Origin: Paramecium tetraurelia
Lineage: Eukaryota
Assembly (NCBI GenBank): GCA_000165425.1
Contig: CT868011.1
Location: 248,001-275,394, forward strand
Reading direction: 5' to 3'
Length of the DNA stretch: 27,394 bases
Both the position numbers and the translations under genes were made by a program. Of the stretch, positions 3,278-27,394 are shown piece by piece (positions within the stretch are counted from its first letter, which is position 1; each line of letters starts with the position of its first letter). The notes under the pieces are model-generated. The model was given only the letters and a program-made list of their open reading frames with translations. It had not been told where the DNA came from and searched no databases.

Positions 3278-4023
3278 TTGTTAATTTGACATAAATATTT
3301 ACAAATGAATTAAATTTGATATAATTATCTTAATCTTTTTTTAAATTGCTCCTTTTTTGATGGTTGTAACCTTAGAGAAGGGAGTATAATATTTATTCCA
3401 ATATTTATAAATTAGAATGAATTAATTTATAAAAATATTTATCAAAATTTTGTTTTACCTAATTTTTAGCTAATATAAAAATATCAAAAAATAATAATCC
3501 CATAAAGCATTTATTTTAGCACCACAAACATATTTTACAAAATTTAAACCTTCAAAAATTGCAAATAATATTCTCCCTGAAAGTGGTTTTTATTTTTCAC
3601 CTTTTTAGCTACCATTAATATTAAAACTTTAAGAATTACCTAAATCTCAATTTAGAAGCTAAGGAGACATTTACCACATATTAAGGCTGTGTAGAGGAAT
3701 CATTTTATGAATCATCTGAGGGCACATTCATATCTATCCTTGTCCTTTTGTTGCCCTTTTGCTTAACTTATTCTGGTTACAAAAACCAGGTTAATTATTC
3801 TAACTTAAACTTAGATCTCACCTCTTCTGCTTCACTAAAAGACTTAGATTATCTTCTCTTTCTACTTGCTTACTGTTATTATCCTGCTTGTTTTTAACTA
3901 TTTTTTATCACTTATCTTTCTGGATTCTCCTAATTCCCATTTTTTTACCTAAGAATCTAACCAAGGCTAGATTTATTAAGTTGACCAGTTAATTAGACCA
4001 ATCTTAGAAAGCTACCTCTTGAA

Positions 4024-4080
4024 GGGGTTGGGGTTGGGGTTGGGTTTGGGGTTGGGTTTGGGGTTGGGGTTGGGTTTGGT
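4024..4080 (+). repeat. Telomeric repeat tract (TTGGGG/TTTGGG), right end of a macronuclear-type chromosome
   Basis: Mixed G4T2 and G3T3 units are directly visible, with the G-rich strand running 5'->3' outward from unique sequence. Confidence 0.97.
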
Positions 4081-4086
4081 TTTTCC

Positions 4087-4236
4087 NNNNNNNNNNNNNN
4101 NNNNNNNNNNNNNNNNNNNNNNNNNNNNNNNNNNNNNNNNNNNNNNNNNNNNNNNNNNNNNNNNNNNNNNNNNNNNNNNNNNNNNNNNNNNNNNNNNNNN
4201 NNNNNNNNNNNNNNNNNNNNNNNNNNNNNNNNNNNN
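4087..4236. other. Assembly gap (150 N) between two opposed telomere tracts
   Basis: Run of N of the same length as the second gap, which suggests an arbitrary spacer. Confidence 0.99.
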
Positions 4237-4257
4237 GGTAATGCACACCGAAAGATA

Positions 4258-4516
4258 CCCAAACCCCAACCCCAACCCCAAACCCCAAACCCAACCTCAA
4301 CCCCAACCCCAACCCCAACCCCAACCCAAACCCAACCTCAACCCCAACCCCAACCCCAAACCCAACCCCAAACCCAAAGCCAACCCCAAACCCAAACCCA
4401 AACCCAAACTAAACCCAAACCCAAACCCAAACCCAAACCCAAACCCAAACCCAAACCGAAACCCAAACCCCAACCCCAAAACCCAAACCCAAAACCCAAA
4501 CCCAAAACCCAAACCC
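4258..4516 (-). repeat. Telomeric repeat tract (CCCCAA/CCCAAA on +), left end of the ~23 kb segment
   Basis: About 260 nt of C4A2/C3A3 units with some variant units (CCTCAA, CTAAA, CCGAAA, CCCAAAA). Confidence 0.97.
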
Positions 4517-4850
4517 TTTAAAAACAAAATTTAGTTTTTTGAATTTGTGGGTATTCGATAAAAGGTTCCCGAAATGCGCCAGTCTTCTTGGCTAGGTATG
4601 AAACTTATTCGATTATATTCTTTTATTCTTTAATGTTAGTGACATGTGGTATGTATATTGGTGTACAGCCGTCTAATTATCTGAGGCCTAGCCCAGACAA
4701 AGTTATTTCTTCACCAAAGGTAGATAATGTAATGGTTACGCTTGTTATTGTATCTTGAGACATGATAGATGCTTCCTTCCCTCTTTGCATATGAGAATAA
4801 TATCTTGATTTCCCCTTTATTTTCTATTGGCAAAGCAAGCATAACTCCAT
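4517..4850 (-). pseudogene. Possible ORF with a degenerate N-terminal C2H2-like motif, running into the telomere without a stop
   Basis: From ATG at 4850 (minus, code 6): MELCLLCQQKIKGKSRYYSHMQRG..., i.e. C-x2-C-x12-H with the second His absent. No TGA occurs before the telomere. A second frame here is also open, so support is weak. Confidence 0.3.
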
Positions 4851-7630
4851 AAATTGATAACCATAATTCAAATTGAAAATTATTATAAATTTAATAAAAA
4901 TAATACACACATGAACTTAATCTGATTTAAGGTCTTTAAACATTTTTTCAATAAATCAAGGAAACTGAAAAGGTAACCTTTTAATTTAGCAAGTATTAAA
5001 TTCGCAGCTCATAAAAATATAAAACTTCTTTTTTTTTGTTTAATTTTTGATTCAATTATTGTAAACCCTTGACAGATTTGATTTTAAACATTTTAAGGCT
5101 TGGATACTGGAAATTTACATAAATGCAATAAAATATCAATAAAACAACTTGATAATTTTTATTTTATTCTATTCAGGGATTTATTATTACTTAGTAATTA
5201 TATAAAATTAACTTTTATAACTCAATCATTCTATATTCGCCATCCCTTACAACATTTTTTATTTCTTTTAACAATTCTGCAAAACAGTTAACCTAAAATA
5301 CTACTCTAGAACCCATTTAATTTTTATTTGCAAGAGAATATTTCACTTTTACGAAAAACGTAAGGTCAATCATGGTTCTATTGACTTTAAGAATATGATC
5401 TTCTTTTATTTTTAAAAAAGTTCTCAATTTAGAATTCGGTAATGGTTTTTGCTACTTTAGCGAGAATTAGATCACCATTTACTTACAATCATGTGTGTAA
5501 TCAATTTTTGGCTTCACAAAAGTGTAACCTCACCTTATCCTTAACTAATTGATGTCAATATATCATTTCGTAATTAATTATAAATTTTTATTGTAAATAA
5601 TACCCTTAAAATATATTTAATAAATTTCACCTTTTAACATATCACAAGGTTTCTCAAGTGCTAGTATTTGTGAGCAGCAATTAATTGACACATTTAATGA
5701 GTTTATTCTCTAACAAATCCAGTCCTAAGCATTCGAAAACTAATGGATTTAATCCTCTTCATTTATGAAAATTCTAAAGGTCAAAAAAAACTACAAAATA
5801 TCTGCTAGCACAATACAATCCATTTGATTTACATTTGAAAGTGCTACTTTCCATAAAACATTATTGTTTTTTGGAAATTTTGGCATATTTTCTTCCTTCT
5901 TTATAATTTCTGTATCACAGCATTATATACTTATTTTGATCCATACTTTAGTAGGCTTTAACATTTATTTGTTATACTCTTACTTTATAGTGTATCGAAT
6001 AAATTTTCTAAATGATTTATTTACTAGCTTTGATTTTTGTCAAACCTTCTCTTACTTTTGATAAAGTTGTTTATCAATCATAGTCGAATCATATGTATTG
6101 TTTGTATATTTAGTTAGACATCTTTAAAAGATTTACCATATATTAAAAAAAGTACATCTTTCTCTCTCCATATCATATTTATTTTTAAAATGTGGGATTC
6201 TTTTGTTATAATTATTACTGAATTCTGAATGACTGTTATTGGAGCTGAGCATTTGTATTAAAGACATAGTTTTATTTATTTTATCCTCTTTTACTTTTCT
6301 TTCATTTGCATGTATTACTAGCAGAAATTGGAGTAAGCCTTGCTAATTTATTGATATGCAATTGCTGGGATGGATATTTTCTTGTTGGTTAACATTTTTA
6401 TGATTACCACAACAAATGTAAACTCAGGATTAATTGACCTTAATTTATTTCTTAAATGTTCCACCATTAAGATTGCTAGATAAAATGATTGTTTATTGAA
6501 TCCAACAGCAATAGCATTTGTAAATAATGGTAGAAGCACTTTTAAACCATCTAAAATCTGTCTTTAGAACACAATTATTGAACCAGCTAGAATATAGTTA
6601 AAGCGATAGCTGAAGAATCACGTTCTTGTAAATACATACTTATTAGGAAAATAAACATTCTTCTCTTTTTTGCATTGTCAAATTCTCTCTCAGAATATTA
6701 TGTGAGAGTATCTTTTGTGATAATGCTGATACTGACAGTTCTAACTGTTAACTGAGCAAGCATTTAAGAAGCCTATGCCAGTTTCATCTATAAATGGATC
6801 ATTGTGATTAGTAAATTGTGCAGCATTACTATTCATATAACTACTTGAATCTACTTAAGCCTTACATCAATTTATGTAATTGTAGTTGATAATGCTTTAT
6901 GGAGGTTGACAGTGTCAAAACCAGAACAAAGTTTCGCATACATCATCATTGATAATTATAATACATTAGATTTCATGAATGCCAGAATGATAGACAACCA
7001 AAATACTATTTTTATAACTACTATGCAAATCTTATATCTCAAAACAGTAATGCAGTTGATTTGTAGCAATTTCTGCACTAAGGCTTTTGTACACTCATTA
7101 TTATTCGAATAACACATACTTTCATTACAATTTAGTACATTTGTATGAGGGTACATTCTGTAACATCTCCATAATTGAATGTATCTATGAAAGTTGCACT
7201 ATTTCGAATACATTTAACTCAACTTCACAAAGCGAGAAGCACTAAAATATAGAGATAATTATTGTAAATCCTGTTCATGTGACTTTTTACAGTCAGTCGA
7301 TTCATATGCACTTACTTTTCTATCTACCTAGTATTTGTTTTTAACAGGCCCCTATTAGTTGTGGATGATATTAAAGAGATATTTTAGAACATCCGTTATT
7401 TAGAATCATCATGACAGATTATCTGAACCCTTTGCAACTTAATAAGATTTATCATTATAGGCAACAGTAATCTAAAGAGTGTTCAAAAAATTAGTAATAG
7501 AGAGGTTAATTTATGTATTGATAAATTCAATTGAATTGTATACAAAAAGTGCAAATTACTTAATAGAATTACAAGAAGATATTTATTTTTATTGTCTCTA
7601 ATATATTATTAAAAGCTCTAACAATAGGAA

Positions 7631-8257
7631 ATGATTAAAAAAAGTGTAAAATATGATAATGGAGATTCATATGATGGAGATTGGGTTGATGGTAAAAGGC
7701 ATGGAAAAGGTAAATATAAATGGGCTAGTGGAAATTCATATGATGGAGATTGGGTTGATGATAAAATGCATGGAAAGGGTAAATATAAATGGGCTAATGG
7801 AAATTCATATGATGGAGATTGGGTTGATGGTAAAAGGCATGGAAAAGGTAAATATAAATGGGCTAATGGAAATTCATATGATGGAGATTGGGTAAATGAT
7901 AACAGAACTGGAAAGGGTGAATATAAATGGGCTAATGGAAACTCATATGATGGAGATTGGGTTGATGATAAAAGGCATGGAAAAGGTAAATATAAATGGG
8001 CTAATGGAAATTCATATGATGGAGATTGGGTTGATGATAAAAGGCATGGAAAAGGTAAATATAAATGGGCTAATGGAAATTCATATGATGGAGATTGGGT
8101 AAATGATAACAGAACTGGAAAGGGTGAATTTAAATGGGCTGATGGAGATATATATTATGGAGATTGGGTAAATGGCAAAAGGCATGGATAAGGGGAATAT
8201 AAATCTGCCAATGGTGAAAAATATAATGGTAAATGGGTCTTAGATGAAAGAATGTGA
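7631..8257 (+). CDS. MORN-repeat protein (~208 aa, ~9 MORN repeats)
   Basis: Tandem 23-aa units SYDGDWVDGKRHGKGKYKWANGN match the MORN consensus YxGxWxxGxxHGxGxYxxxxG. TAA at 8189 is Gln, so the frame continues GEYKSANGEKYNGKWVLDERM to TGA 8255-8257. The true start could lie in an upstream exon. Confidence 0.93.
7660..8240 (+). repeat. 69-bp coding tandem repeat (MORN units) with a higher-order 207-bp period
   Basis: TCATATGATGGAGATTGGGT recurs every 69 nt. The variant GTAAATGATAACAGAACTGGAAAGGGTGAA occurs in units 4 and 7. Confidence 0.95.
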
Positions 8258-8394
8258 ATTTTTAAGTTAAATTATAAGTCCATATTATAAAAAATCAATT
8301 AGTTTTTCATTGAAAAAATCATTCTTAAGACCAAAATCAATATCTTAAAATTAGATTTTATTTGGTTACTCAAAACAAAATTTTTTTAAATAAT

Positions 8395-9700
8395 GTAGAT
8401 TAAGAATTGAAAGATTTGAAAGATTTGATTGCATTAAGCGACTAATGAATTAATTACAATATATTAACATTCCCATGTAATTTGGGCGTAACCAAATATA
8501 ATAGTCATCTTCTACAAAGAATTGAAGAAATTATAAATAAATATGAATGATCACTATCATATCACAAATAGAACGAGAAACGACTTGAGAAATATGCTTG
8601 AAGTAAGATCTTCGTTTTTTGCAAATTTAATGAAAAAAGTAATAATCTTCAAAGAGTAATTATAGATTCAAATTGGATAGCGATTAAAAGTTATTTATTT
8701 AGCACTTAAATTTTCAGGAAACCTTAAGATACACATATTGACTCTCTTTTAAAAATTGTGATTATATTGAATCCAAAATAGTTTTATAATCTTACACAGT
8801 ATATTGCTAGTATAATATAGAATAGCATCCTTTGTTCATTTCATTGAAAGACCAACAACATTAAAAAGAAAATCTATCGTCAATTGCCAAGAAAAAATTG
8901 GAAACAGTTCAAGAAGTGATTAAGAAAAATAAATTCAAATAGCAGCGGATGAATCAAAGGGACAATATGATTTGCTTGAAATAAAAATGTTGATGATAAG
9001 CAACGCTTATTAATCAAGTCTGCTAAAATAGATGGAAAATGGAGTATTTTTGGATATCAATGAAAGTGGATCACAAATGAGAGTTTTCAAATAAAATTTA
9101 GTTGTTCCAATTCGTAACATTCGAATTAAATAAAAATAATCTAATTTACTTTGAACATTAAAAAATTCAAAGGGGAGTAAAATGAAAAAATTCCCTAAAT
9201 AACATTAGAGATGTTAGAAAGAGTACTTCTGAATTTATCTATTGAAGCTCAGACAAAACAGAATGATAGAGAAAAAATGGAGGATAAAGCAAGATTTTTT
9301 AATTAACCAGTTTACAAATTGATTTGAACTTATTGTATGAACAGGTATAGTAAATTATTCGTATTTTAAAAGATATTGAGGCTTGCATTTATACTACATT
9401 CACAAATGATGCAAACTGTATTTCCCATTAATTAATCTTTTCTCCTGATAGGAGTGAGGGATCCCATAATAATTAAGTATGATGGTTAAAATAACGAAAA
9501 ATACATATATATTCTCTGCAGTAATGGCCATGATTTATTGAATTTCAAAGGTGCAATTCCTGACTTTAAGTTTAAAAAAATGTTTTGATGTACAACGTAT
9601 AATTGAGTGGTCAGAATGATTATGATATTTTTTGTGGAAATCAAGTTCATTTTAGATTATAAATGATAAACTACTTAATCTTATTAAGGATTAGAAATAA
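8395..9700 (+). pseudogene. Decayed coding-like sequence, product unassigned
   Basis: Protein-like stretches in alternating frames (e.g. ADESKGQYDLLEIKMLMISNAYQSSLLKQMENGVFLDINESG; ILCSNGHDLLNFKG) are broken by TGA and frameshifts. Boundaries are approximate. Confidence 0.3.
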
Positions 9701-9729
9701 CACATTCTATAAAAAATTCAATTTTAGGT

Positions 9730-11450
9730 GATAAATGATATTAGAATACTCTATTCTCACATAATATGATTCTGATCTAGGTATTTATTAAAGCGTAAGT
9801 GCTATTTCTTTACACTATCAATTTTGAATAATTTAAAACAATCTTTATTCAAATCATAGCCTGCTCTCATAAATATTATTTATACAAGTTCTGAATTCTC
9901 AATAAGGCTTCTAATTCTCTTCCCGCCTACGATGCAATCGCGGGATCTGATGGTATGGAACTATTAATTCCTAATTAGCCAAATATCTAATATCTAATAG
10001 AACAAAAGTTCTAGTGTAAAGGCGAATTAGACCAGACACAATTAATAAATCATAATTGATTCATGACCTGAATATCCTCTCTTGGAGCATCTAGGGGTAT
10101 TCCAATGGAAATATAAAGTTTTCCAGAAATTTAATATTATCATGGCTTAGGAAGCAAAATATGGTATGAATAATAATCTTAACTTTATTCAATATTAATG
10201 CTATTGGTAAATAAGAGAGGGAACCAAATAATGACTCTAATTCATTCAAAATTTCCTGCTTAAGAATGGAGGAATTAAAACTAAATAGCTAATTCCTTTT
10301 TAAGAAATTTTCCTTACAATATAGTAAACATACATCTAATTAGTCCAACCAAGATTGAATGGAAAGCAACTCTTAAAGTTTTTTATATTCTGCTGCCATT
10401 ATTGGTGGTGCTATTAACTCTTAATGAGGAAAAAAAAATAAAAATATAAGATGCATTTTTATAGATTGAATTCTATACACTAATCTATTTCCACATCCCT
10501 CATCATTCTGTAAGAACACCTTTTCAAAGGCCTATTATTAATGCTGAATTATGAAAAAAATACTTGAACTCCCTCCAATTTAAACTTTACAGTATCTTGA
10601 TTATATGAAAATATCCAATTATCCTGAATTCCTTCATATTAAATAAATAGACTAAAAATTTTATCAATAACAAGAACCTATCTGATGCTTTAAAAGCATG
10701 CAGGTCTTTACTAATCTCCAAATAATCAAAGGAATTCTATGATATTATTACTTACTCAATAAATTTAAAACCATTCAAAACGGAAGGATCCATTATAAAT
10801 TAAACACAATAGAAAGTCATTTAAGCACTTTTCTTAATCGAATAAAGCTGTCCTTTATGACCTAATAGTACTCAATAGATAAGTAAGTTATCTCAATGAG
10901 GACCGCGCTTTTATGAATAAACTAATGAACTGATGAAACTAATCTACATATTCATTATGAGGCTAGTATGTGTACCAAGATTAATAAAATATTTACATCC
11001 AATATTAACCCTTCTTCAATAGGCTTTTAATCCTAAATTGGTCGCTCTTAATTTATTGATAAGATGATCGAAGAATTGAAAACAAAAACGAATGGTCTAA
11101 AAAAGGCAGAGTTTCTGTATAACTAGTACTACTATATGGCTGCAAGAAGAGAGTCTTTTTAATCCTTTAGAGAAAATAAGAATTTTTCATCCTTTTCAAT
11201 AAGAAGGAGCTTTTAGCCATTGAATAGTTATAATAATAGCTACTATTCATAAGAATAATTATAACTATTATGCATGAATATATGTATCACCATGGACGGT
11301 TATACGGAAGATCAAGGCTTATACTTGATGTGCAGGAATGTTTAAATATCACTTCTTTGTTGAAGGTAAATCCGCATAGGGGGCATCCAATAAAATTATT
11401 AAAGGAAATCTTGGCTATTCCTATAAATCTCAATCTCTAATTTTATGAAC
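9730..11450 (+). mobile_element. Highly degenerate non-LTR (LINE-like) retrotransposon remnant: APE endonuclease plus partial reverse transcriptase
   Basis: APE motifs appear in the expected order: LNILSWSIQG (10068-10097; cf. I.SWN..G), NIVNIHL (10318-10338), AIIGGAINS (10395-10421; cf. IIGGDFN) and ID*ILY (10461-10478; cf. IDW/YIL). NINPSSIGFQ (11001-11030) resembles the RT QxGF block. There are frameshifts, stops and apparent internal deletions. Boundaries are approximate. Confidence 0.75.
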
Positions 11451-11469
11451 TAGGAGTATTTCCATTTTT

Positions 11470-12770
11470 CATTTGTACATTAAAATTATGTATAATATAC
11501 CTAAACTTTTCTCTGTTACTTGCCTTCTTTTAAATATTGTTCCTATTGCTGTCCACAAAGAATACATATACCTTCCATGATACCCTTATTAATGTTTGTC
11601 ATTATCTCATCTTTTCTAGCCTATAGTTTAACTCATTAAAGATCCTGAAATTTTTAAATATTCCAAGTTAACTTTAAATGAATTCTTAAAACAATTCCAC
11701 ATCAATTCTCTGGCACACAGTTTTTCAACCCCTTCGGAAATAAATATTGTGGTACAAGACCAATTTACTTATTAGACTCCTATATCAACACTTAAGCCGA
11801 GCTGGGAGATTTTCAATTCTTTCAATTTCTTGTTCTTCTTTCTACGGTTACTCATCTTTTTAGTGACTATATTATCCTATTAGTCTTTTCATCTCCAAAT
11901 TGGACCTCGCTCCTCGCTGAGTTTAGTCTGATATTCTCTCTTCCGCTTTTAGTTATCTCAGTTCTTTTTTTTTCTTTATCTCTCTAAAATTTACAAGACA
12001 TTTGCTATTCTTTGAATCTTCAATGATCATCACATCTAGATTTTCTCTGCAGAGTAAGGATCAATTTCTTTCTTACTCTTGCTTCGCTAATATGTTATGA
12101 TCAATCTTGGCTTGCCAACTATATGACTTTCCTGTTTTGATCATTGTAGTTTTTGCGTAGAAGAATATGATGTATAACACACATTCAAATTCAATCAGAT
12201 TGAAATGTCTTCTTATAATCAAACACTTCCAGCACTCTTGTGTTCTTATCTGGGAAGGTGTTCGATTTATATACATCTAGCCTTGCTTAAATAGTCGTTT
12301 ATTATATATTATGATTGTATTTCTTATAAAATCTTACAATTCCAAAAGTATCCAATTAAAAATCTGTAAAAAAAATTTTCCATCTCCTTGTTTTGTTATC
12401 GATATAGTAAGTAAAATGTTGAATGGTCACCCCTCATTGAGAATATTGCCCGTATTCCATTGATATCTGCAGTCCCATTTCTTTCATTTTGAAATTAGTA
12501 CTTCCTTGGAACCATAGGACCTCTCCTTCGTGTCCATCCAGCATAACTTCACTCTCCTAAATAAGTTCATTCTCAGTTTCCCCTTGTTTTGGCCTTGTTC
12601 AATCTCCTAATAATATTTTTAAATCAATTCCTCCATGTTACCCTTTTCCATGAATGGCCTAATCATGCTTTCTACAGTTAAGGAATCCTCATAGATTCTT
12701 TATTGGGGCGATGGTGACCAGAATGGGGGCTTACTCCCTATGATCCGTAATTGTATCTTTTTTGTGACAT
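11470..12770 (-). pseudogene. Decayed ORF, copy A of a repeated family (homologous to 13862-14990)
   Basis: It starts MSQKRYNYGSQGVSP at ATG 12770. The block YEDSLTVESMIRPFMEKGNMEE (12693-12628) aligns with copy B, and colinear similarity continues over ~1 kb with frameshifts. The 3' boundary is approximate. Confidence 0.65.
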
Positions 12771-13861
12771 TTGAAATTTTTTTTAAATTATAATCTAGCT
12801 ATACATCTGTATTCTTCTCCAGAAATTTAGTAAACATATTCTCAATGGAATCCACTAAGGTTTTATTTTAGATCCTTTTTGTTTGTCATTTATGGAATAA
12901 TTGATATCTGAGCTTTGATAAAAGTTGATGTTGCTATTGCCATAGAAATAGATTCAATGTTGAAAAAGTTGAAAAGATTTAATGATTGAGTGAAGCAATT
13001 AATAGTACTCTACAAAAATCATCAGTAAAAAAGGATAACATTACTGAATATGATTAAAAAAAGAAGATGCACATTAGAGACATTTAGCATGCAGGAAGCT
13101 TTAGGAAAAATAGTCATTCATCAAACAATAAACAATCGGTGTTGGGTGTTCTAACTGGAAAAAGATTTTATAAAAAAAAGGAAGAGAATATATAAACAAA
13201 TTTAGAAACGATACATAAAAAAAGTGAAGTCAAAAGTAAATCTAGTACGACAAAAACATTCAAAAGATTATAGATTAGTCATTTCTTATTGGCGATCCTT
13301 TTATAAAGAATCTAAACCTTAAGGTATTTTCTATTTTTAAAATGAGAATTTTCATCTTAGCAATCATTGATTCTGTTTATTAGAAGGTAAAAATTTTAGA
13401 AACTCATTCCGAACAAATAAAATAAAATCAGCTATAATGTAGATTTTCAAAAAACAACATCAGAATCTTATATAAAACAATAACGTAATTGGAACTCTAA
13501 TTAACATTATAATTTTCTTATGTTTTCTTGTTTCAATTTAATATCTTAATAGAGAGAGAAAAAGAGTCTTATCATAGCAAATATATGCAATAAGATTAAA
13601 TAATGTATGTAACAATAATTGGATATCTAAGGTATAAAAATTTAGTCTACTAAATAAATAACTGAAATACTCTTGGATAAATATTTTTTTCAGATACTCT
13701 TAATCGTTATTCTTAAAGTTTAAGAGGAGTAGAAGAATAAATGCGTTTTACCTTTTAAGGTAGTGAAGTTATACTAATCCTCTAATAATCCAAGGAAAGG
13801 GTAAGATATTTTTCATTAAATTTTAAATATTATTCAGAATAATTTAAAAAAAAAATTCTAA

Positions 13862-14990
13862 ATGTCCAGAAAAAGACACAGTTAAAGGTCAAAGGGAGGA
13901 AATCCCTAATAGGGCATTATTTAATCAAGATCCACCTAATAGGCTAATTGTGAAGACTCCCTGACGACTGAATGCTTAATAAGGACTTTCATGGATAAGG
14001 GGAATATGGAGGATCAAATTTTAAAAACATTATTCATTGATGAATTAAGGTTGAAGGATAGGGAGAGTAAAGGTATCAAACCTAATTGATGCTAGAGTGA
14101 TCTTACATAGATGGGACCAGTTTCCTGATAGGGATCCGATAATATAAAAAGGCCAGGAAACTAAGAGAAGCTTCAATCTAATGAAAGAGGATATGGATAT
14201 ATATCACCACATTCTTTACAGAAATTCAGATTGATAATTTGGATGCTTTTACAAGGAGAAGAATCGTGGATCAATATAATTGATCCAATAGGATTGGTCA
14301 ACATATTTAAGCTTCGCTAGAGGAAGAAAGAAATTGATAACAACGAAAGAGAAAAATCGAGTAGAAGCAACTCAATAGAAGGATTGCAGGTGAGACACAT
14401 GTTGGTAGCTTTAGAGAACTAATAATAGAAGCAATAAGAGTAATAATAAATGAGAGGATATCGGATCAAGAATCCAAATAGAGCCAAGGAACAATGAGGA
14501 AACTAAGGGTCAATCTATGAGTGACGTCCTAAACGTGGCTACCGAGAACGTAGATATAGAAGGAACTTCAATAAGTTAAATTGATTGAAGGTGCTTTGGG
14601 CTTAGCTTAGATGGTTGATGGGGAAAGAGACGAATACATTCTGTCGGTTAGAATATTCCCAAATGGCTCTACTAATTTGCTGAAACCTGAGGGCTGAATA
14701 GCTATATGAGTCTATTTATGAACTCAACTATGAGTACTAAAATCCAATAAAAACGAAAGACTTAGAAGGATTATAAAGAGAGAGGGTTATAGAAGAGCTC
14801 AAGTTTGTAAAAGTAGAGAGCGATCTATAAAAAGAGGGATTTTAAAAGACTATTTGGGCTTAATTGACGCTGTATACGACGAATCTGACATGATTGTGTT
14901 TATTACGCCAGAGAGAAGATATAGGATGGTGGAGATCAGACTAATTTAATATGGTAAACTAGATAGATACTTTAAATTATTTATATATCC
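13862..14990 (+). pseudogene. Decayed ORF, copy B of a repeated family (homologous to 11470-12770)
   Basis: It starts MSRKRHSQRSKGGNP at ATG 13862, with the block CEDSLTTECLIRTFMDKGNMED at 13949-14014. In-frame TGA and frameshifts follow downstream. The 3' boundary is approximate. Confidence 0.65.
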
Positions 14991-17117
14991 TAAATAAGAA
15001 ATTACTTAAAATGTTTGATGAAATCATTAAAAACCATTGGTTGATTAGACTATCCTTTGACGATAAGATGATCTGTGCCACGCTAATAGACTACACTGTA
15101 TTTTTTAACTCTCCTGCTAGCAAGTGTGGACCTTGCTATATTAAGAAGCCGTTTACAATGACACATATATCAAACACCAAGAATTATTATTATATATTGT
15201 TCATTAAGGTTTTAAACAGAATCTTTAAAAATATTTAAATTAGGGAACAAGTAACAAGCTAAATAAATTATTTAGAAGATAGAAACAACAAACGCATAAG
15301 GTTACATATAGAATTAACTATAAAAGTTATGATTGCCTTCTGATAATAGTGTAGATAATTGATTTCAAAAAGAATACCAAATCCTTCTGGTTAAATTTAC
15401 TACATCAAAATGATCTATATAATGATGTAAAGCAAAAACATTCATTTAGAATAGATAATTTTAAAGTAAAAAATAATTCTTGGCTTGAAGAATTTATCTT
15501 AAATATATTAGTTAATTGGTTAAAAAAAAATCTTTTGTTTCATCTATTTTATTATACAATTCTAATTAAAAAATAATCATAATTGGTTTCTTAATTTAAT
15601 ACTAATTAAATTTGCTTCAAAAATATCAATGGAACCATTTTGTTCACTCTTAAGGGAATTTAATTTTTATAAATTTATTATTCTAACTCAAATTCTCAAA
15701 GCTAAGGAACCTAATTATCTGATTTAAATTTTTGGCTTTATTAATTTAATTCCCAATAATTAATCTGTTCTCATTTTATTAAGAATTTTTATTTTTATAT
15801 AATATGTATTCACTTCCAGTTTTCCACATACTAAAGAAATTACCAACAGCCTTTTTAATGTAAACCTTCTATAATAGAGTATCCCACTAAATTGAAATGA
15901 AGTTCCCTTTAACAAGTTTAATAAATATTTATGTATCAACGAGATGATTATCAATGAATAATCAAGAATATCATACTTTTTATTACCACCAATTTCATAA
16001 TTTCTTATCTCTTTAAACATTTATCTTCACTATTCCCTTTTTTGCATTTTTATATACTCATACAATTTATGTATTTGTTATCAATCTTCTTAGAATCCTC
16101 GACAGTAGTGTTTGGCCAATACTTCACTAAGTAATTGTTCATCAATTATAAAGTGATCATCATTTCTCTACTATTGATTGTGAATTTATTAGGTCACATT
16201 TTGAGAATTATAGAAGCAATTACATGCTATTGTTAATGAGCTTCTAGAAGTGAGAGGTCTCAATATAGAAAGCACTTTAATTATAAAATTTTAAGTTTGG
16301 AGATTGATCTTCTTGCTGAAATTCTTTTTACTTTAAAATGGTTTTACTATTCAACCTTTTAATAACCGAGCATGTCAAATTAATACTCATTGATTTGGTT
16401 ATGTTATCAATAAAATAACTTTCTTTTATAAATAATAAAATGATATTTTTAGAAATATTGTTTTTCTTCCTTATTTTAAATTTCGTTTTAGGAAACAATG
16501 ATCCAATATTTGGATAAGACGATTATTTAAAATAAATAGAACAAAAAGGGTTTATGTGATTAAAAAACCAAATTAACAATTAAATTATATTTATTAATTA
16601 TCAGAATATAATAAACTAAAAATAATAAAGGTTAACTTTCAATTCGCTATTAAATAATTTATAGTGAGTAAGAAGTTATAATTTATTTTAGGTAACAGCT
16701 TTTTCTTACTTCAACTTAAATAAGTATTGATTTGAAGTTTTTAAAATCTTAAAAGTATAAGGATGAAATATTAAGTAGGCTTTATAAAGCTTTTTCAATT
16801 TTTTTGCAAGCCTTTTTTTATTGTTCACAATCAGAAAAATTGTTGTTAATCATCTTTTCACGTCGATAAATATTAAAACAAATAAATAGATTATGCTATT
16901 GAATTCAAATATTGATGATAATTTAAAAAAATTAATTAAGAATGCATCATTATTTCTCGAAGAAACAATATCATTAACAAATTTACTTTAGATATGCCAA
17001 ATTTATCATTTTATTTTTAGTTGGATTTAGTTCTTAAATTAGGAAAAATTGAAAAAGAAATTAATTTTTTTCATTTTAATTATATAATATAAACTTCCAT
17101 ATAATTAATAATACATC

Positions 17118-18395
17118 TCACAACTCATCTTGCTTAAGGTCTCTATTTATATATTATTCAAAGTTTCTAAATTCGTCATAATCTATTATTAAACTAGACA
17201 GTCTTTCTTCGGCCTCAGAAAATTCCCTGTTTTCCATTCCTTCTTTAAGATAGGTATCTGTGTAGGCTTGTCTTTTTTTAAATTTATAAAATTTGTCTAA
17301 TAATGCTTATAATCTACTAACAATTGAAGCATCATTTGAAAAAAAAGTTCCAGTTTGTTTCATCTCTGCAAGTTCAGGTAATACTTAGTAATTAGATGAT
17401 TTACATTGAAAAATATCTGATCTGTAGCCAAAGAAATAATCTAAATTCTTATGAATTATATCCAATTTACCAAAGAAAGGGTTCAAATATTGCTATCTCA
17501 ATAATAAAGTAGTTAAAATATGATTAGGATTAGAAGGACATTGATAAAGTTTTTAGTCCTTTGTTGTTAGATATTAAATAAATTATTTGCTTTCTAATTC
17601 TTTTCTATTGTAATCATTCATTAAAGTCAGTTTACCATAGGATGGAATAATAAATTGTAAATGAGGATAAGGGCACATATTTGAAAAAAATTCGGAGTTA
17701 TCTTCTGAGTTAAATCTTCTTAGTCCTGTGTACGAACTAATTATTTGAGCAACTAAGTTGTTTAAATGTTAATAATCAACAAAGTCTAAACCTAATTGAT
17801 GATCAATAACATTGTACATTGACTAATTGTCAAATATTGTAATACTTGTTAAATATTCTCTCATAATATTAATCGATAACACAGCATTATACGTATCAAT
17901 AATATTATTGGACATCTCTGAAGATGGGAAAATTATAAATCCATTTTTTCTTACTTCCCTGTATCCACCTTGCCAATTCAACTCAGCAACTAACCTAGTA
18001 CAAAATCCAGACCCAGTTCCTCCACTTATTGAACTTGTAATCACAAATTCATCTAATCGATCCATGGTTTCTATTTGTTTTCGAATACATTCTAATGCTT
18101 CATCTTAAATCAATCTTCCACCATCATAACAACCTCGAGCATAAGTTAATGCATCCTCTTTCCCGTGTAAAAATGAATGCTTCTTAAATTTGACTGATTT
18201 GTTCCTTTAGACTTCGTGTATCATTCTGTCATCTGTGTCTACGAAAAGTGCTAATGGATAATGATTCCCATCGACTTCATTATAAATATAATTCTTTTGA
18301 TTAGTTTCATTGTATTCTTTTTCATATAGTTACCATAACATATCACCAATCATTACTCCAGCCCCTCCTATATGAATATGAAATGCAGAAGACAT
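17118..18395 (-). CDS. Divergent alpha-like tubulin (possibly Paramecium iota-class), 425 aa, intronless
   Basis: A single frame is open in code 6 from ATG 18395 to TGA 17120-17118 (1278 nt). Motifs: MSSAFHIHIGGAGVMIGDMLW, PLALFVDTD, GKEDALTYARG, SISGGTGSG (tubulin signature), IFPS..SNNIIDTYNAVLS, FDNQSMY, LNNLVAQIISSYT, SEFFSNMCPYPHLQF and EGMENREFSEAEE. These are closer to alpha- than to beta-tubulin. Confidence 0.95.
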
Positions 18396-18599
18396 CCAAA
18401 GATAACAATAATTTAAATAGTAAATAGTTTTCTAATTTTAATGGAACTTAAATGAAAAATATCACATGAACTGGAAGATTCCATTTTCAATGTAGCTTTA
18501 AAGCTAAATGTATAAAAAACTTTATGATTACAACAAGTAAATATCGAATAAATATCATTAAATCCATAAATAAAAATACATTAATTTTTCAATATTAAT

Positions 18600-21500
18600 A
18601 TATTAGGAAATTTTTTGAAGTGAAAGAAAAACAGAATAAATCATTAGTTTATCAATATATTCCCAGTTATAAAATAACTTTCCTTACCTAATTCAACTCA
18701 GCCCATCTATTTATATTTAGTTAGCCATTTATTATACGAATATCTTTTGAAAAATCCTTATTTTTATTGATGTGGGCATTTTAATGTATTTATATGTGAT
18801 CAAGTTTAATGTAATTTTATTGTGATATTCAAAGTAATGGTTACTCCTACAATCATTTTATTTTTATTATTCATAGAGGACTAAGATGATAAATATACTA
18901 AAGAGGCATTATATTTTAAACATCACTAAAATGTAACGGATTTTGGATTGTGGTGCATCATTTCAAATAATATTGGCTGTGATAAGCTACCTATAATTGC
19001 AAGGATTTATGGAGGAATAAAGTATTTTAGTACAAATATTTTATGATATTAAGCTCACATGATTTTTTATCCTATATTTTTGTAGAATGCAAACCCTTGA
19101 AAGTAAAAAAAATAATAGAGAGTATACATACAAATAGAAATAATTTTTTAAATAACTACAGTTTATCCCTGAATGTAATAAGAAACGGTGGTCTAATCTC
19201 TTATTGACCTAATAGCAATAAAGTTAATGATAATTCATTTTAACATTTATATATCGCTTGATTCTTCTAGTATTCTTTCGTAATATCTTTTACCTGCTTT
19301 CTATCCACGCTAATTCAAAAATAATGATCATAATCTCTATACTTTTTATATATGCTAATTTTAAGTTCAACAAGAATAAGAATGTAAAATTTAGAGTCAT
19401 AATTACAAGATTGACCTCCTTTGTTATAATTTAAGTTTTTTATGCATAATTTAATAATTTTGCTGTGCCTCTCCAATCGTAAAGTACTTTTACAAAAAAA
19501 CCATTATTTATCCTATTATAAAGTTGTTTTGTCAAATTTGCAGAAAATTCTACTTAAGAATCCATTGTTATTTTATCTACTTTAGCAATAAACATATTAT
19601 ATCTAATATCGATATTTAATAAATACCAGTCTATAATTAATCATTCATTTCCTTTAAGACTGATAATAAACATCAAAGTGTAGTTTCATGTGCATAATCA
19701 AAACATTTAAAGTATGAATAACCTTTTATAACAGAGTAAAAATTTTAAAGTATAAACAATTTTTGAGTTTAGAGTTTTTCTAGAAACCATGTTAAATTTG
19801 CTAAATCGTCAAACTTTCAGTATTATGATAATGAATACCTAGTGTATCTATTAAAATTAAATTTACCACTTTAATGTAATAACTCCATAGTTTAATTCGC
19901 TTTTCATTTAGTTAAATTTAATTCTGTATTAAAGTTAAAGTCACTTCTTTGTAGGCTAATCATCTGTATTTTTGCATCCAATTCTGAAGTTAATTAACAA
20001 TGGTCTAGTTTAATTAAATAAATAATATTTTGTGGATAGAATTTATCGTAATTGTTTATCCTCTATTTTATTTTAAATAAATGATCGAAAGACCCTTTGG
20101 AATAATACTATTTGGATTAAAATTTACAATTGTGCTTTCGATTTTATTATCACAAAACCAAATTAATTCTTGATTAAATTCAATTGAATAAATTTAGAAA
20201 TACTTTAATCGAATTTAAAAACAAGATCTAATTATTTTCTGATCTTAAGTATCAGTGTAAAAGTATAATAAAGTAAGGACTTATTAGAAAGAGGCTGCAT
20301 CATATCTAGTATAAAAGTTTTTTTATATATTTCTTCTAACTTTTAAAGAAATTTTATTTATTCTTAGTTGAAAATATTTTCTATGATAAATTATATTAAT
20401 AATGTAACCCCAACTTCACTATTTTGAATAATAGTTCAATAAATCTAGAAAATTGAGGAATTGTTGTAAAAACCCACTTTTAATCAATATTTAAAAGTTC
20501 TTTCGAGAAAATGCAAGAATCTAAAGGCCAAATTTGTTTTTGAGTTAGGGATTTATTAGGTCATCAAAATCAAATACTTTAGTCCTAAGGTCAATCATAA
20601 AGAAAATTCCATTAATTTAATAAAATATAAAGATTATTATGAAAAGAATTAAAACAGAAACCCTAAAAAATCTATTGTGATCTATGTAAAGAAGGTATAA
20701 CATGAACAATGGATCCAATAGGCAATAAAATTTGAAGAGCTTCCAAGGATGGTCAAAGAGAGACTATTAATAGCATTTCAAATATTCCAGATATGTATAC
20801 ATCAGAGTCAAATGAAGTTGATACTTCTTGGATTTGATACTAACCTGATGGATTGAACTTATAAGAGTTTTCTGATTTCAACAGATTAATCATTATCAAA
20901 GTAGTCCATGCTTTGCTTATAAAATATATCATCAGATAAAGTTATTCTATTCTTACAAAAGTAAGACTTTAATCAAACTATCATCTCAAAATAAATTAAC
21001 TTAATTTAAAAAAAAAGAAAATATTTAAAGAATATCTATTAACTTCAATATTATTAACAATACAATCCTTCTTTTAATTAGGTTTAGGATATATCCAAAG
21101 CAAGCCATCAGAGATGAAGTACTCTCACACTTAAAGATTAAATTTATGATGAAGTAAATTAAATTATTAATAGACATTAGTATCTAGATTATTTCTTTAC
21201 TCTAATAGCATCAAGAAATAGTGATGCGAAAGGAGATGAATTAAACTTAGTTCAAAAGCTAAAGTTTTTTATTGTATCCAAAAAGCAAAAGAGATCTGTG
21301 CTGCAACATCAAGATGCGGTTAAGCTCTAGTATTAATGGGCTAATCATTAGGGATGGATCTCCTAGTGATTTATTTTCTCGAACCATCTAAAATTTTAAA
21401 GAAGGATGTTTTTATAAAGCCAATTAATATAGAAATTTGGAGAATTAAGAAAAAAACTACAAACTTACTATTGTCTTGTTGGACCTGAAGGACTAGCAGA

Positions 21501-21700
21501 CGTCCAATTAAAAAGTTAAATAATTCAGCATTCACATCAAAAAACAGAACTTAGAGCAAGGTTTAGGCTATTTCTTCATCTTCAAACACCGTTTTTTACA
21601 AGATTAGAATGACTTAATTAAATGACAATGTGATTATGGATTTGAGGAGAGCAAGGTATACTATCACTAACATCTTTTACTATCTACTTTGAGTGTGAAA
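18600..21700 (+). pseudogene. One or more decayed coding-like remnants, unassigned
   Basis: Short protein-like segments (e.g. TINSISNIPDMYTSESNEVDTSWI*YQPDGLNL near 20765-20860) are present, but I found no sustained open frame even in code 6. Strand and boundaries are tentative. Confidence 0.25.
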
Positions 21701-24700
21701 TTTTAATAGATTTTGACTTTAAAATAATTGTTCTTAATTTTATGGGAGTGAATGATTATCGATCAAGTCTAGAGATTGATGAAACTCAAAGTATGTATTC
21801 TCCGAAGTTGAGGTTACATTTTTTGGAAATTGTCAAAGTTTCTATTTTCATTGAACTAATCTTTTTTTCTGTGAATTTAAAAGTTTAATAGTTTCTATGT
21901 TGCTTTTTAGATTATACCAGACTATTTCACCCTAATTTTCTTATCCTTTGCTTTTCGTTTAGCTATCTAAGCTTTTTCTTAAATTGATTGCGACTTTGAC
22001 AATTCCCATATAAACTCTTTCTTTCTTTATGTTAAAGGAATCAAAAGATGATGAACCCAGGAGTTCGAAATTTGATTAGGTAACGGAATAGAGTGGCTCC
22101 TTCCTAAATGTTGAAATGAAATAATACTGATGTGCTAATGTCACAGACTCAAATATCGATAGAAAGTTAAAGCTTGATGTGTGGTTCGGTTGTAATCAGA
22201 ACAATCTTAATTTCTACAACTATTAAATTCCTAATTGCTTAGTTAAGTTGATGTCAAACCCGTTGTTTTGATTTCTATTTTTAACACAACCAGCTTTATA
22301 AGTATGTGATAAACATTCATGTAATTATGTACAACTAGTTAGTCGATTGTTGTACGACCCCTTTTAGCTCTTTAACATTCTTCATGAGTTATGTAGATAG
22401 CGTTGACACAAGATATAAATAGCTTACAAACCTTTTGAATCAATGGATTTCAAGGCTTTCATTTATTGTATAGAAATGCCATCAACTCCAATGGCACAAC
22501 TTCCATAAGTATTTTTTTCTGAAGATGAAACAATGGCCACACAATATTTATCCATCTGCTGTACATTTATCACTTATTTATTTACTTCATTAATCACTGG
22601 TCCACTCTAAACTCTAACAAGAAGTGTAAAGAAACAAGCTCCTTGAGAGCCATCATAACATATATTATTCGATCTACAAGCAACTCTAACACCCAATTTT
22701 ATACCTTTGCACATCTCCCATGAATTCTGCAGTGCAATCCCATCCTCTAAAAATTCTTCAACTCTGCATATTTGTTGAATGACATCCTAACTTTTATTGA
22801 AATTGAGTAAGCCTTATCAACAGTAGCTGCTTAACACGTTAACTTTTGAAGACATCTTTCTCCTTATTTTGTTGGGCAAATAGGAAAATATTCTTTGCAT
22901 AAGTCTTCAGTTATCAAAGTATCTGGTTCTAAGGATAAGGTTTTTATGGTATAATTAATCTCATTTTTTATTATCCCTAAAATACTACTAACCACAATCC
23001 ATATCTGGAACCTAATCAAATTATTCTCCTTTTGAAGAAGTAACACATCGGGCTTTATCTAAAACCTGTACAAGTGTCCTTCATGTAACATAAATGGTTG
23101 CATTTAGAAATAGCTCATTTACATAAAGCATCTGTGGCAAAGGCAAAATCTCCAGAAACTTTAGTTTTGCATTTAACATTATCTAAATCACAGTCATCAA
23201 TAAAATTATCGCAATCATTTGCAGTGGCTGTTATATCTAGAGCATTTTCACATGAAATACAGACAGTTCCTGTCCTATAGCACGATCAACCAGCCATAAG
23301 TATAAAAACAATTATTTACGATGTTATTGTTTCGCAAAGTAGCAGGAATATCTAAACATCTATTTTTCGGAATCTGAGAATGTGCATTTATTAGCAATGT
23401 AAGCTCTAGCTTTTTGGATCATCATCATTACAGAAGCAGTAGCAAAAAACCAGAACAGCATATTAAGTATCCACTCCATTTACTATGGATCCCCATATTT
23501 AGTTATTTAACACTATTCTTTGTCAATATATGTTATACCTGCAGCTCTCTATTAACACCCTCCTAAAGTTGAGCTATCACCACTATTGCTCGGAGTGGCT
23601 ACAACAGTATATTATGCTATTGCTGTATTATAGTAAGTATAGAAATCATTATGGGGTTCAAGTGAAAGTAAGACCACTAATACAGGACTTATCTTAGCAG
23701 CCAAGTGTTTTCCAAACACAAACACCACCACTTATAGTTTGAATTGTTCTTCTATTGTATATGAACTGCATGCTCCTCTTGCCATAAAACCATTAAACAG
23801 AAACACCTTTTACGCATTAACTGTGCAAACAAGTGCACACTAGCAAATTCATTATGGATGTCGAATGAAGTTATGCCATCAATATTACCACAATTCAAAT
23901 CAACACATGTCAAATTGGTTGGATTCGAAAAGTATATTCCACTACTTTTATCAACCGTAAATTAGAGTAAAGATTTGTAAGAAATCACCAGTTGCTCTGG
24001 TTTGACAACCTCCTATTCTAGCAACAAAATCTGATTACTAGTAAGTTGAACATTTAGTGTCATCCTCCCTTGTAGCATCAGTTGCCGCAATATCACATTT
24101 CTACACATGATGTTCACTCTCCTTCAACAGAGTAAAGGCAAACTGATGAAGCTTAATCTGCACATCTAAATCCATATGTAAGCATCCTTAATCTCCTTAA
24201 TTTGCATCACAAGTATTAGGCTAAGTATTGTATTACATGAGTAAATATGATTAGGCACAAGTTTTTGCTTCATCCAGTTGTTCCATTAACTGTATATCCG
24301 ACTTACTTTTCATTACATTTTGCACTGTGGTAATTCCTGATTCTAAATTGACAGTGTCACATGTTTTAGCAGATGAAGCAGCAACAAAGTAGTATCAGCA
24401 TTTGTACTTGGTATTCATAAACCAGCTACTGATTTATAACAACTAGAGGGAAATTACGTATCCGTAACATTAAGCTTATTTTAAAAACAAGCACTCCTTG
24501 TTCTAGTTATACTGCATCCTGTGTTATAAGAGTAGCAAATGTCATATGCTATAGTTTCAGCAACCCTGTTATTTTAATATAATCAGTTGAGGCATTTGAA
24601 ATCGTGATACAAATTGAGCCATATAATTTACATTTTGAGGCCTCAGTTTTTGTGTAACTTAATAGGGATATGATCATTCGCAAATTGATTTAAAATCTTA

Positions 24701-24875
24701 ACATTTGAATCCATCAGCAATTGATGTTCAATCTAGATTATAAGCTTGACATAAAGCATGATAAAGAACACTTTCCTGTTATTAAACCATAATTTACATC
24801 TGTGATGGTTATCAATCCAAATGCATGAAAGAGGCTATTCATTTATGTAGTTCTTGCAATTATATTTAGCTTCTT

Positions 24876-25019
24876 AGAAAGCAGAATTATAAAGGGAGCT
24901 TTCAAAAATATGTTCATATCAAAAAATATAATAAAAATACGTATCAATTTCAGCAATAAAAATTTGATCATAAAAGTAATTTTTGAAAAAGAGGACGAAC
25001 CAAAATATCATTTTACTTA
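24876..25019. mobile_element. ~130-145 bp AT-rich insertion in the surface-antigen pseudogene (IES/MITE-like)
   Basis: It interrupts the motif ..CIQLKGG(I) | QEAKYNCKNY... TA dinucleotides lie near both edges, and there is an internal inverted repeat TTTCAAAAAT (24900-24909) / ATTTTTGAAA (24979-24988). Exact ends are unresolved. Confidence 0.5.
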
Positions 25020-25579
25020 CAATACCACCTTTTAGTTGAATACAGCCTTCTTTGTATTTTAACAAATTGAATCTGTAATTCCAGTTCCAGTCCAATATCC
25101 GAATTTTTTATAGCAACAATTGTAATTGGTATATATATTGTTCCATTTACTCTTTTATCTAGTATTGTTTTAGTAGCTGAAGTAGAACAACAATTCTGAG
25201 TGAAATATAAATCACATGTCTTTAATCTTTCCTAACAAGTTCCGTCAGCAGTGGAAATGCAGTTAGAATTATACATCCTACAAATAGTATCAGTTTCCTA
25301 TTCCAGTGGTTGAAGTGCAATTTGAATGCCTTATCCAAAGCTAGAACAGTTTTTGTGATATCAGAGTCTGAACAAATTACTTATACTCATAGCATCCAGT
25401 GCAATCATTTAGGCTTGTGTATGAAGAATCATACAGCTAACTATTAGCATGATCCATATCAACTAATCCAATTACAAATCTACATTCAGAGGTTTAGTTC
25501 ACTTAGCTACAGTATGAATAATCGATCCATGTATTATATCTTGCTTTTGATTTGAAGCAATCTCTTTATTAAAGTATGG

Positions 25580-25729
25580 NNNNNNNNNNNNNNNNNNNNN
25601 NNNNNNNNNNNNNNNNNNNNNNNNNNNNNNNNNNNNNNNNNNNNNNNNNNNNNNNNNNNNNNNNNNNNNNNNNNNNNNNNNNNNNNNNNNNNNNNNNNNN
25701 NNNNNNNNNNNNNNNNNNNNNNNNNNNNN
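25580..25729. other. Assembly gap (150 N) flanked by a near-duplicate ~50 bp sequence
   Basis: Run of N. ATCCATGTATTATATCTTG...AGCAATCTCTTTA occurs on both sides. Confidence 0.99.
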
Positions 25730-25969
25730 ATAATCTATCCATGTATTATATCTTGTTTCCTTTTTTGAGCAATCTCTTTAAAAAACAACCTATTGGGATC
25801 TTTTAAAAACATTTTTTGTACTTCCTGCTTTATATTAAGGACACATTGACTAAGTATTTGTTGAGCATGCTCAATTAGCAAAGGGGGATATATTAGTGAT
25901 TACTAATTTCTTCGTTTTCAATAAAATAAATTTATTTTTTCATTTAGGATCTCTCATTTTACAATACTA

Positions 25970-26800
25970 AATTAATACTGTTCAGTGTATTCAAAGTCAT
26001 CTACGACTAGATCTTGTGGTTCTGCAGAGTAGGATACAAACAGGAAATAATCAATTTGAAACTCTGACTCTATTTACTACTTTTTCATCCTCTAGTTTAT
26101 GGGTTGACTTTTAATCCTCTTCAAGGTTTTCGCATTCAAAAATCTATGTATAAATTCGGTCACTTCTTACGTAATTTTTGGTTTTAAGAGATTATTCCAG
26201 AAAAGCTATCATAATTACTTGATCCATAATTGAATTCTTTTGCTGAATCTATACATTATAAAATGACTGATTCTATTTCAACTTATAACCCAACCCTATT
26301 TCAAATTGTTCTTTTTTACTTAGCTTAAAGCAACTTGAACAACTAATTCTAGAAAGAGTCTAAACAATTTAATACTAATATAAGATTTCTCTTTATCAGA
26401 ATTTTAATCCAAACTTTAGAGTTTATAAAGCTATATCTCCTTAACTGATCAAGACACTTATTTCTTTTTTAACTACTTATTTAGATTGCAATACTCCCAA
26501 TCTTAAAAGTCCTTAAGATACTATGGTTTTGCAAAATTTTTCACCTATTTCTCTACAATTAATAGATATTTTTTTTTCTAATGTAATATACTTGTTCTTT
26601 TTAAGATTATTCTCTGTTTTACTCTTCTAAAACAATTTATCATATTGATCAACTGTTAAAAATTATCATATCTTTACAAGGATTCTTCATTAAGCTGCTC
26701 AAATGATTATCTGGGGAGTATGACTAAACTAATTTTAGTTCAAATACAAACTGAATTAAGTTAGATAAAAGGTCTTGGAATCAAGATTAGGTGGATAAAT
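25970..26800 (-). pseudogene. Decayed coding-like sequence, product unassigned
   Basis: The minus strand is purine-rich with protein-like fragments ending ..QIDYFLFVSYSAEPQDLVVDDFEYTEQY. Several TGA codons and frameshifts lie upstream. Confidence 0.3.
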
Positions 26801-27356
26801 TTTACTTGAAATAATTGCTGCTAAATTAGTGTATTATTTTTATAATAATTTTAATCATTTTTTTTAGGATTAAATTTCGACAAAATAATGATAATAAAAT
26901 ACTATATTTCATTTAAACATTTTATTAAGTGAATTTTATACAATCGTTTTCTTATTTCGAAACCAAGACTTTTCTCAATAAATATTTCTTTCTTTAACAC
27001 TAATATAAATATTCTGCCACCTGTAGAATAAATACAAAAACTACAGGAAAATAAAGATTTATTTGTTATTTATCAGTGTCTGTTACTAAGGGTTGAATTT
27101 TTTATTTTTATTAGCCAAAAAAATTAATTAAATTAGTAAGCATGATATCTTGGAGTTCTTGAGTAATTAGGAACTTATGTTAAAATTTCTAGCATCAGAT
27201 CTGTTAAAGTAATTTAATCAAAGGGTTCGTTCTAGAATACTTCCATAATAAAGTATAAGCTAAAAAAATCTTCCGCACAAAATTTATTTTTTGATTGTGA
27301 GTAATTAACTTAAATATTAAATTATATATCTTTATGGCTAGCCATTTGTTAATCAA

Positions 27357-27394
27357 GGTTGGGGTTGGGGTTGGGTTTGGGTTTAAGTTTGGGT
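27357..27394 (+). repeat. Telomeric repeat tract (TTGGGG/TTTGGG), right end of the ~23 kb segment
   Basis: GGTTGGGGTTGGGGTTGGGTTTGGGTTT..GTTTGGGT at the end of the window. Confidence 0.95.

Follow-up and report, generated by a model that had tools for sequence, protein, structure and literature searches.

A telomere-bounded, retrotransposon-bearing segment at the end of a Paramecium macronuclear scaffold is probably a MAC-variable region

In Paramecium, the variable compartment of the macronucleus (MAC) amounts to 9.2 Mb and peaks toward chromosome ends (PMC13085455), and MAC-variable regions have been defined as scaffold extremities that have low coverage and contain telomerisation sites (PMC8354472). 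When repeats are eliminated imprecisely, either telomeres are added or the ends are rejoined, the alternative sites being 2-13 kb apart (PMC7599177). The assembly as published is said to disregard minority telomeres (PMC4235209), and reads with telomeres pointing in both directions have been reported at gaps in an assembly (PMC13076228). Chromosome fragmentation in Paramecium is described in the literature as imprecise. In Tetrahymena, non-maintained chromosomes lie between two chromosome breakage sequences (Cbs) and are absent from the MAC assembly (PMC5182062), and those tested vanish by 20 doublings (PMC5091840). Here we analyzed the terminal 27,394 bases (the window) of contig C28 (275,394 bases) in the Paramecium tetraurelia assembly G000. 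Within the window lies a segment of 22,629 bases between its own telomeres, the distal part of a 275 kb macronuclear scaffold, which an initial annotation had taken for a complete linear minichromosome. Our analysis indicates that the segment is probably a MAC-variable region, made of decayed germline DNA rich in long interspersed nuclear elements (LINEs) and situated immediately past the point where the C28 body usually ends in the somatic genome. The class is already described in these sources, and as such the segment is one more instance of it.

The segment opens with a C-rich telomere tract and closes with a G-rich stub (Table 1). The repeats are of the mixed G4T2/G3T3 type, the tracts at the two ends face outward as the annotation had described, and shuffling the sequence 200 times produced no such tract. 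The annotation had also named unlinked sides of the internal gap at 25580 as grounds for giving up a single molecule, and we found the two sides to be linked. Among the sequencing runs, which were available as contigs only (24 runs listed, with neither nuclear source nor clonal age on record), four (X2, X3, X17, and X21) were compared with positions 8300-27394 of the window. One contig each in X3 and X2, two of these four runs, crossed the gap with a skip of 212 bases and at a depth equal to that of the flanks. A direct repeat of 56 bases, 82% alike, flanks the gap on both sides, and it led to the prediction of an overlap that was then seen as the 212-base skip. The paralog on contig C458 is likewise collinear across this position. 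The gap is an unmerged overlap, an artefact at which the true distance is negative, and outward-facing telomere repeats thus bound contiguous sequence at both ends; the stretch 4517-8300, to the left of the compared region, contains no gap in the assembly. Single-base insertions and substitutions relative to the X3 and X2 contigs at 22960-23455 and 25800-25868 are probably assembly errors in thinly covered sequence. Together with the G-rich tract that ends the body, the assembly holds three telomere tracts at the segment, and contigs cannot show internal sites.

The content of the segment is germline-like, as had been claimed. Open reading frames occupy 8% of it and three decayed LINE copies, whose outer limits are approximate, together about 21%, so that gene density is low and the repeats are of germline type. 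The coding fraction in a codon model, an insensitive proxy, was 0.12 for the segment vs 0.32 for the upstream 64 kb, and roughly half of the segment had no nameable match. For the first LINE copy, four peptides from 10351-11090 occur verbatim and in the same order in published Group 5 elements (PMC5405496 supplement), which bears out the annotated LINE remnant. These peptides were selected after a match had been noticed by eye; six were tried, the four that were found all fell in Group 5 entries, and the other two came from the second repeat family. By its predicted endonuclease and reverse transcriptase (RT), both related to the published consensus, this stretch classifies as the remnant of a Group 5 ORF2; its anchors span 9952-11116, and its outer limits are approximate.

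The other two copies belong to a second dispersed repeat. They match a copy on contig C446 by nhmmer (E 2.7e-40 for 11260-12800, and E 4e-20 to 4e-7 for 13856-15199), and the C446 copy runs into an RT stretch that resembles, by eye, the Group 1 element RT43898. We therefore infer, through the C446 homolog, that the second family is Group 1-like. No LINE was detected by domain or profile searches. Pfam found no RT in 26 read-through frames and the family pieces, a genome search with PF00078 listed five places of which none was inside the window, and tblastn with 150 RT relatives gave no window match at E<=1e-3. RT profiles reached 6.3 bits in one case and 13.6 bits, vs 12.4 in the shuffled control, in another, which is no evidence of a LINE. 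A protein search with one piece of the second family returned nothing, and its motifs had no matches in the published transposable element (TE) supplement (PMC5405496). Most copies of this family that we checked were on tiny contigs or a few kilobases from contig ends: near the ends of C446, C313, C469, and C202, on C15 at a distance of 16 kb from its end, and on the small contigs C496, C505, and C167.

A dispersed repeat is also found at the left telomere. The tract at 4257-4516 sits within it, and the repeat copies on C683 and C83 match each other further on the telomere side of the 4517 junction. A repeat shared between the left contig end and the opening of the segment was looked for, and no link was found. 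Contigs of X17, a run guessed to be RNA whose stage is not on record, cover the LINE remnants at 13845-15448, 9944-10383, and 11271-11721, and the deepest of them (24) begins at the left edge of the plus-strand LINE copy. Such contigs would fit de-repressed TE transcripts. No run is on record as RNA among the 24 listed, X17 included.

We assessed presence in the runs by the share of words of 8500-18499 found in each. At least 0.95 of these words occurred in 16 of the 24 listed runs, or, after exclusion of two possible sources, in 14 runs from 9 studies dated 2013-2024; in X18-X20 the share was 0.23-0.27. In X3, whose total of 77.6 million letters is near the size of G000, the long segment contigs had a depth of 24-26 vs 41-55 for eight unrelated contigs caught by chance joints of 20-26 letters, and a contig with a paralogous tubulin had a depth of 49. 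In X2, the depths of the segment contigs were, from left to right, 66.8, 57.6, 42.6, 36.6, 45.2, and 20.7, against a median of 111 (61-172) for ten unrelated chance-joint contigs. Relative depth, which for contigs is no copy number and is measured against chance-joint contigs assumed to be ordinary MAC DNA, was thus about 0.5 in X3 and fell from 0.6 to 0.2 in X2. This pattern hints at partial retention with staggered right ends, and the annotated low or variable copy number is in keeping with a segment that is probably sub-stoichiometric.

These depths bear on whether the segment is instead mainly a free, stably kept 22.6 kb telomere-to-telomere MAC molecule, linked to the scaffold only through rare read-through or germline clones. 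The outward tracts at both ends, the continuity across the 25580 gap, and the flat depth in X3 would suit such a molecule, as would the existence in the same assembly of contig C146, 14,084 bases long with telomere tracts at both ends. The slope in X2 and the scaffold join to the main body argue against it. Moreover, Paramecium telomere addition sites are heterogeneous (PMC7599177), and a Subtle-seq study reports no small two-ended scaffold and judges small ones not to be standalone chromosomes (PMC13076228). Taken together, we regard a predominantly free molecule as unlikely.

X21, which bears the same sample label as X3, has next to none of the segment words and no long segment piece, although its lack of cover is no proof of absence. 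It does contain a copy, about 93% alike, of 23145-25212 (depth 41) and 26958-27337 (depth 24; about 94% alike) that continues without a telomere, and X2 shows the same variant letters at a depth of 4.5-7. This suggests either a germline duplicate kept differently between lines or a different strain. The continuing copy of 26958-27337 could also mean that the scaffold join is wrong or that a different chromosome lies to the right, with the segment as its low-copy left end. If so, depth in X2 would be expected to rise toward the right, and it falls; in addition, C28 itself carries the nearest paralog of the segment tubulin, at a distance of 65 kb and with upstream DNA in common. We consider this explanation very unlikely.

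The near absence from X21 could further be read as the loss of a programmed transient minichromosome that, like Tetrahymena non-maintained chromosomes, carries development-specific genes and disappears in vegetative growth. Such molecules are similar in size, TE content, and paucity of genes (PMC5182062), and the tubulin is under purifying selection (see below). However, the MAC assembly contains the segment, as do 14 runs of 9 studies, its depth is about half in X3, a run with a total close to the MAC genome size, and no defined breakage signal is known for Paramecium from the literature. Since the MAC assembly of Tetrahymena lacks such molecules, which have disappeared by about 20 doublings (PMC5182062; PMC5091840), we give this explanation scarcely any weight.

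The MAC-variable interpretation is favored by the content, the gap closure, the presence in many runs, and the recurrence of the layout on other contigs. The segment also occupies the last 22.6 kb of C28, a scaffold extremity of at least 4 kb. In the mechanism we envisage, which is drawn from the literature, imprecise elimination at the surrounding repeats during macronuclear development would have outcomes that differ between copies. In one, the segment would be lost and the C28 body capped at 4023; in another, the segment would stay joined to the body by read-through; in a third, both broken ends would be capped to give a free piece from 4517 to 27357 or other sites. Surviving copies would be kept in the vegetative macronucleus below full copy number. 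Read-through copies are inferred because the scaffold links body and segment. As a molecule opening with the 4257-4516 telomere appears to have little retained DNA to its right, the mix probably includes some free telomerised pieces. The annotated origin by imprecise elimination and telomere healing is supported and fits the MAC-variable compartment as described in the sources. The observations of the annotation and its interpretation both stand in part.

Several points weigh against this interpretation. For read-through at the left junction the evidence is the scaffold link, and a discrete molecule would also give the flat depth seen in X3. Several runs may be germline-enriched, and the depth comparison has the limits stated with it. 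Among the 24 of 376 loose ends listed, none was at 27357, and no sequence continuing past that position was seen there for X2 or X3. Finally, in the Subtle-seq study an opposite-facing signal was read as a scaffold split in two, which favors free ends (PMC13076228).

The chromosomal context was examined by way of contig C19, a recent duplicate that mirrors the C28 body to about 245 kb of C28 and ends about 5 kb further. Its end roughly coincides with the position of the 4024 telomere, and searches with segment sequence gave no match on C19. We then surveyed telomere tracts across the assembly using the first 100 of 261 pattern matches (contigs C1-C158, with 33 contigs listed); a junction-anchored pattern was too strict, with 8 matches, and was left out of the survey. 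Nine candidate contigs besides C28, C146 among them, were inspected. An internal telomere tract beside a gap was present in at least eight contigs (8 of the 33 listed): C1, C28, C33, C40, C51, C102, C136, and C158. Six of the eight have the same 150-N gap. In C51 and C158, the telomere of a terminal piece (16.4 and 9.5 kb) faces the gap; these mirror-image pieces, C51:1-16512 and C158:1-9627, have the telomere toward a 150-N gap, and the former looks almost non-coding while the latter looks coding. C146 contains one 1,923-N gap; its Cys-rich frame spans at least 2,542 codons, and a repeat frame, which we take to be WD40-like, runs into its right telomere. It is a candidate for a second, gene-bearing small telomere-to-telomere molecule.

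Of the two intact genes in the annotation, the tubulin stood. It carries a tubulin domain (Pfam PF00091, E 3.6e-44) and the GGTGSG motif, and among solved chains it scores best with alpha, beta trailing by about 10 bits; by its predicted GTPase domain, this motif, and these best matches, we class it as alpha-tubulin-like. At E<=1e-60 it matched 28 proteins besides itself, all from Paramecium and 41-68% identical. The nearest copy shares 81% DNA identity, upstream DNA included. Comparison of the two gave a dN/dS of 0.50, with pN < pS (p = 3e-6), and by branch about 0.48 for the segment copy and 0.52 for the other, which points to relaxed purifying selection. Because pN is below pS and the two branches have similar ratios, the segment tubulin is probably functional, and its decay goes no further than that of its paralog. 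X17 pieces lie over it. The six stretches of C19 searched contained no tubulin of this family. The fast-evolving subfamily has about eight copies in G000, including those at C28:199.8 kb and on C253, C498, C51, C513, and C469, several of them on short contigs, and the closest matches of the segment copy in other species are only 61-68% identical. The pattern suggests birth and death in unstable regions.

In a further scenario, the segment would be mostly a free accessory macronuclear minichromosome, retained to different extents in different cell lines, so that the dosage of a functional, fast-evolving alpha-like tubulin would vary heritably. Its basis is the roughly half depth in X3 and the apparent absence from X21, which has the 93%-alike partial duplicate, and we consider it quite unlikely. 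If it were true, with most copies free and line-specific, Paramecium would possess accessory somatic minichromosomes through which gene dosage varies while the germline stays unchanged. Taken as an ordinary MAC-variable end, the segment has little significance, since the class is already described. It nevertheless offers a tidy test locus, with one intact selected gene, a proximal telomere, and apparent run-to-run differences, on which to address how much of the MAC-variable DNA is carried by short free molecules and whether its retention is heritable.

Table 1. Positions of the features in the window
Feature	Position	Strand	Remarks
G-rich telomere tract	4024-4079	+	Terminates contig of main chromosome; alternative terminus of the 252 kb body
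150-N scaffold gap	4087-4236		Joins main body to segment
C-rich telomere tract, mixed C4A2/C3A3	4257-4516	+	42.7 hexamer copies; opens segment
Dispersed-repeat piece	4517-4726		Starts exactly at telomere junction; copies on C683 (77%) and C83 (70%)
MORN-repeat open frame, 208 aa	7631-8257	+	7.9 tandem 69-nt units, 89% alike
Group 5 non-LTR retrotransposon ORF2 remnant, frameshifted	9880-11250	+	Endonuclease to RT start; match by eye and four exact peptides
Decayed copy of second dispersed repeat, putative Group 1-like LINE	11260-12800	-	Through C446 homolog
Second, inverted decayed copy of that repeat	13840-15750	+	RT-like motifs by eye at 15358 and 15703
Divergent alpha-like tubulin, 425 aa, intact	17118-18395	-	ATG to TGA; duplicate of gene at C28:199.8-201.0 kb
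Broken surface-antigen-like (Cys-rich) gene	22158-25891	-	Collinear with C458 paralog across second gap
IES-like insertion candidate, 132 bases	24888-25019		AT-rich (21% GC), TA-bounded; insertion vs one of three paralogs
Assembly artefact	25556-25767		150 N (25580-25729) and duplicated overlap; contigs skip 212 positions
G-rich telomere stub	27359-27394	+	6 copies; scaffold end

For the remaining features, we scanned 215 stop-to-stop frames (105 + 110; 212 of them from the segment) with Pfam, and the credible matches were to MORN, tubulin, and one surface-antigen domain only. A match to LRR_5 was rejected, as it lies on the strand opposite the MORN repeat. The second gene annotated as intact, the MORN frame, is indeed open, but its sequence is absent from the called proteins; we regard it as a young 69-nt tandem array and as a putative gene only. 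A search with its protein returned 77 distant repeat proteins, none named as Paramecium. The surface-antigen-like gene shows repeated frame changes relative to intact paralogs, including within 23882-25555, where run contigs confirmed the assembly; some of its frameshifts at 22960-23455 are assembly errors according to the run contigs. X17 pieces also cover this pseudogene. The many pseudogenes of the annotation came down to this one, the three LINE copies, and one cut repeat that could be named. For its probable retained internal eliminated sequence (IES), the AT-rich, TA-bounded insertion relative to one of three paralogs was found, but no joint removing 24888-25019 was present among 15 of 26 contig joints listed.

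To the left of the segment, an open frame at 228-3308 (+) of 1,026 codons, without a Pfam match and with paralogs on C46 and C32, is the last gene-like frame preceding the first telomere. The stretch at 3526-3666 matches DNA that flanks tandem arrays on C152, on C440, and at the start of C28, the repeat period being about 126 nt; an association of MAC telomeres with a 126-nt minisatellite has been described (PMC13085455). The window reads in the ciliate code.

In a search that left most subscription papers outside its reach, we found no literature on this locus and no papers joining Tetrahymena non-maintained minichromosomes with Paramecium. Compared with the published non-LTR Groups 1 and 5 of Paramecium (PMC5405496), the segment shares the Group 5 ORF2 peptides and, through C446, a Group 1-like RT, whereas its copies are frameshifted, deleted, and incomplete. 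Like the non-maintained or eliminated minichromosomes of Tetrahymena (PMC5182062; PMC5091840), it measures tens of kilobases, is telomerised and TE-related, and has few open genes. Those molecules, however, are delimited by cuts at Cbs, do not appear in the mature MAC assembly, and disappear within 20-120 fissions, while the segment is found in many runs and in the MAC assembly; a paralogous protein called on a contig of equal length carries the source label of macronuclear Paramecium tetraurelia. The segment is thus outside the Tetrahymena definition as given in these sources, and the annotated analogy was not upheld. With imprecise elimination accompanied by fragmentation or rejoining (Le Mouel et al. 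2003, cited in PMC7599177), the locus shares opposed telomere tracts at a linked junction and a left telomere inside a dispersed repeat; unlike in those cases (PMC7599177), the eliminated germline stretch between 4023 and 4517 is not seen here. Another close likeness is to the MAC-variable regions of P. aurelia species (PMC8354472; PMC13085455). Here, the proximal-side inward telomere is captured in the assembly, and the roughly half depth in X3 exceeds the 'small fraction of MAC copies' of that definition, whereas the position at a scaffold extremity, the low gene density, and the TE remnants are shared, as are, apparently, the reduced depth and the telomere sites.

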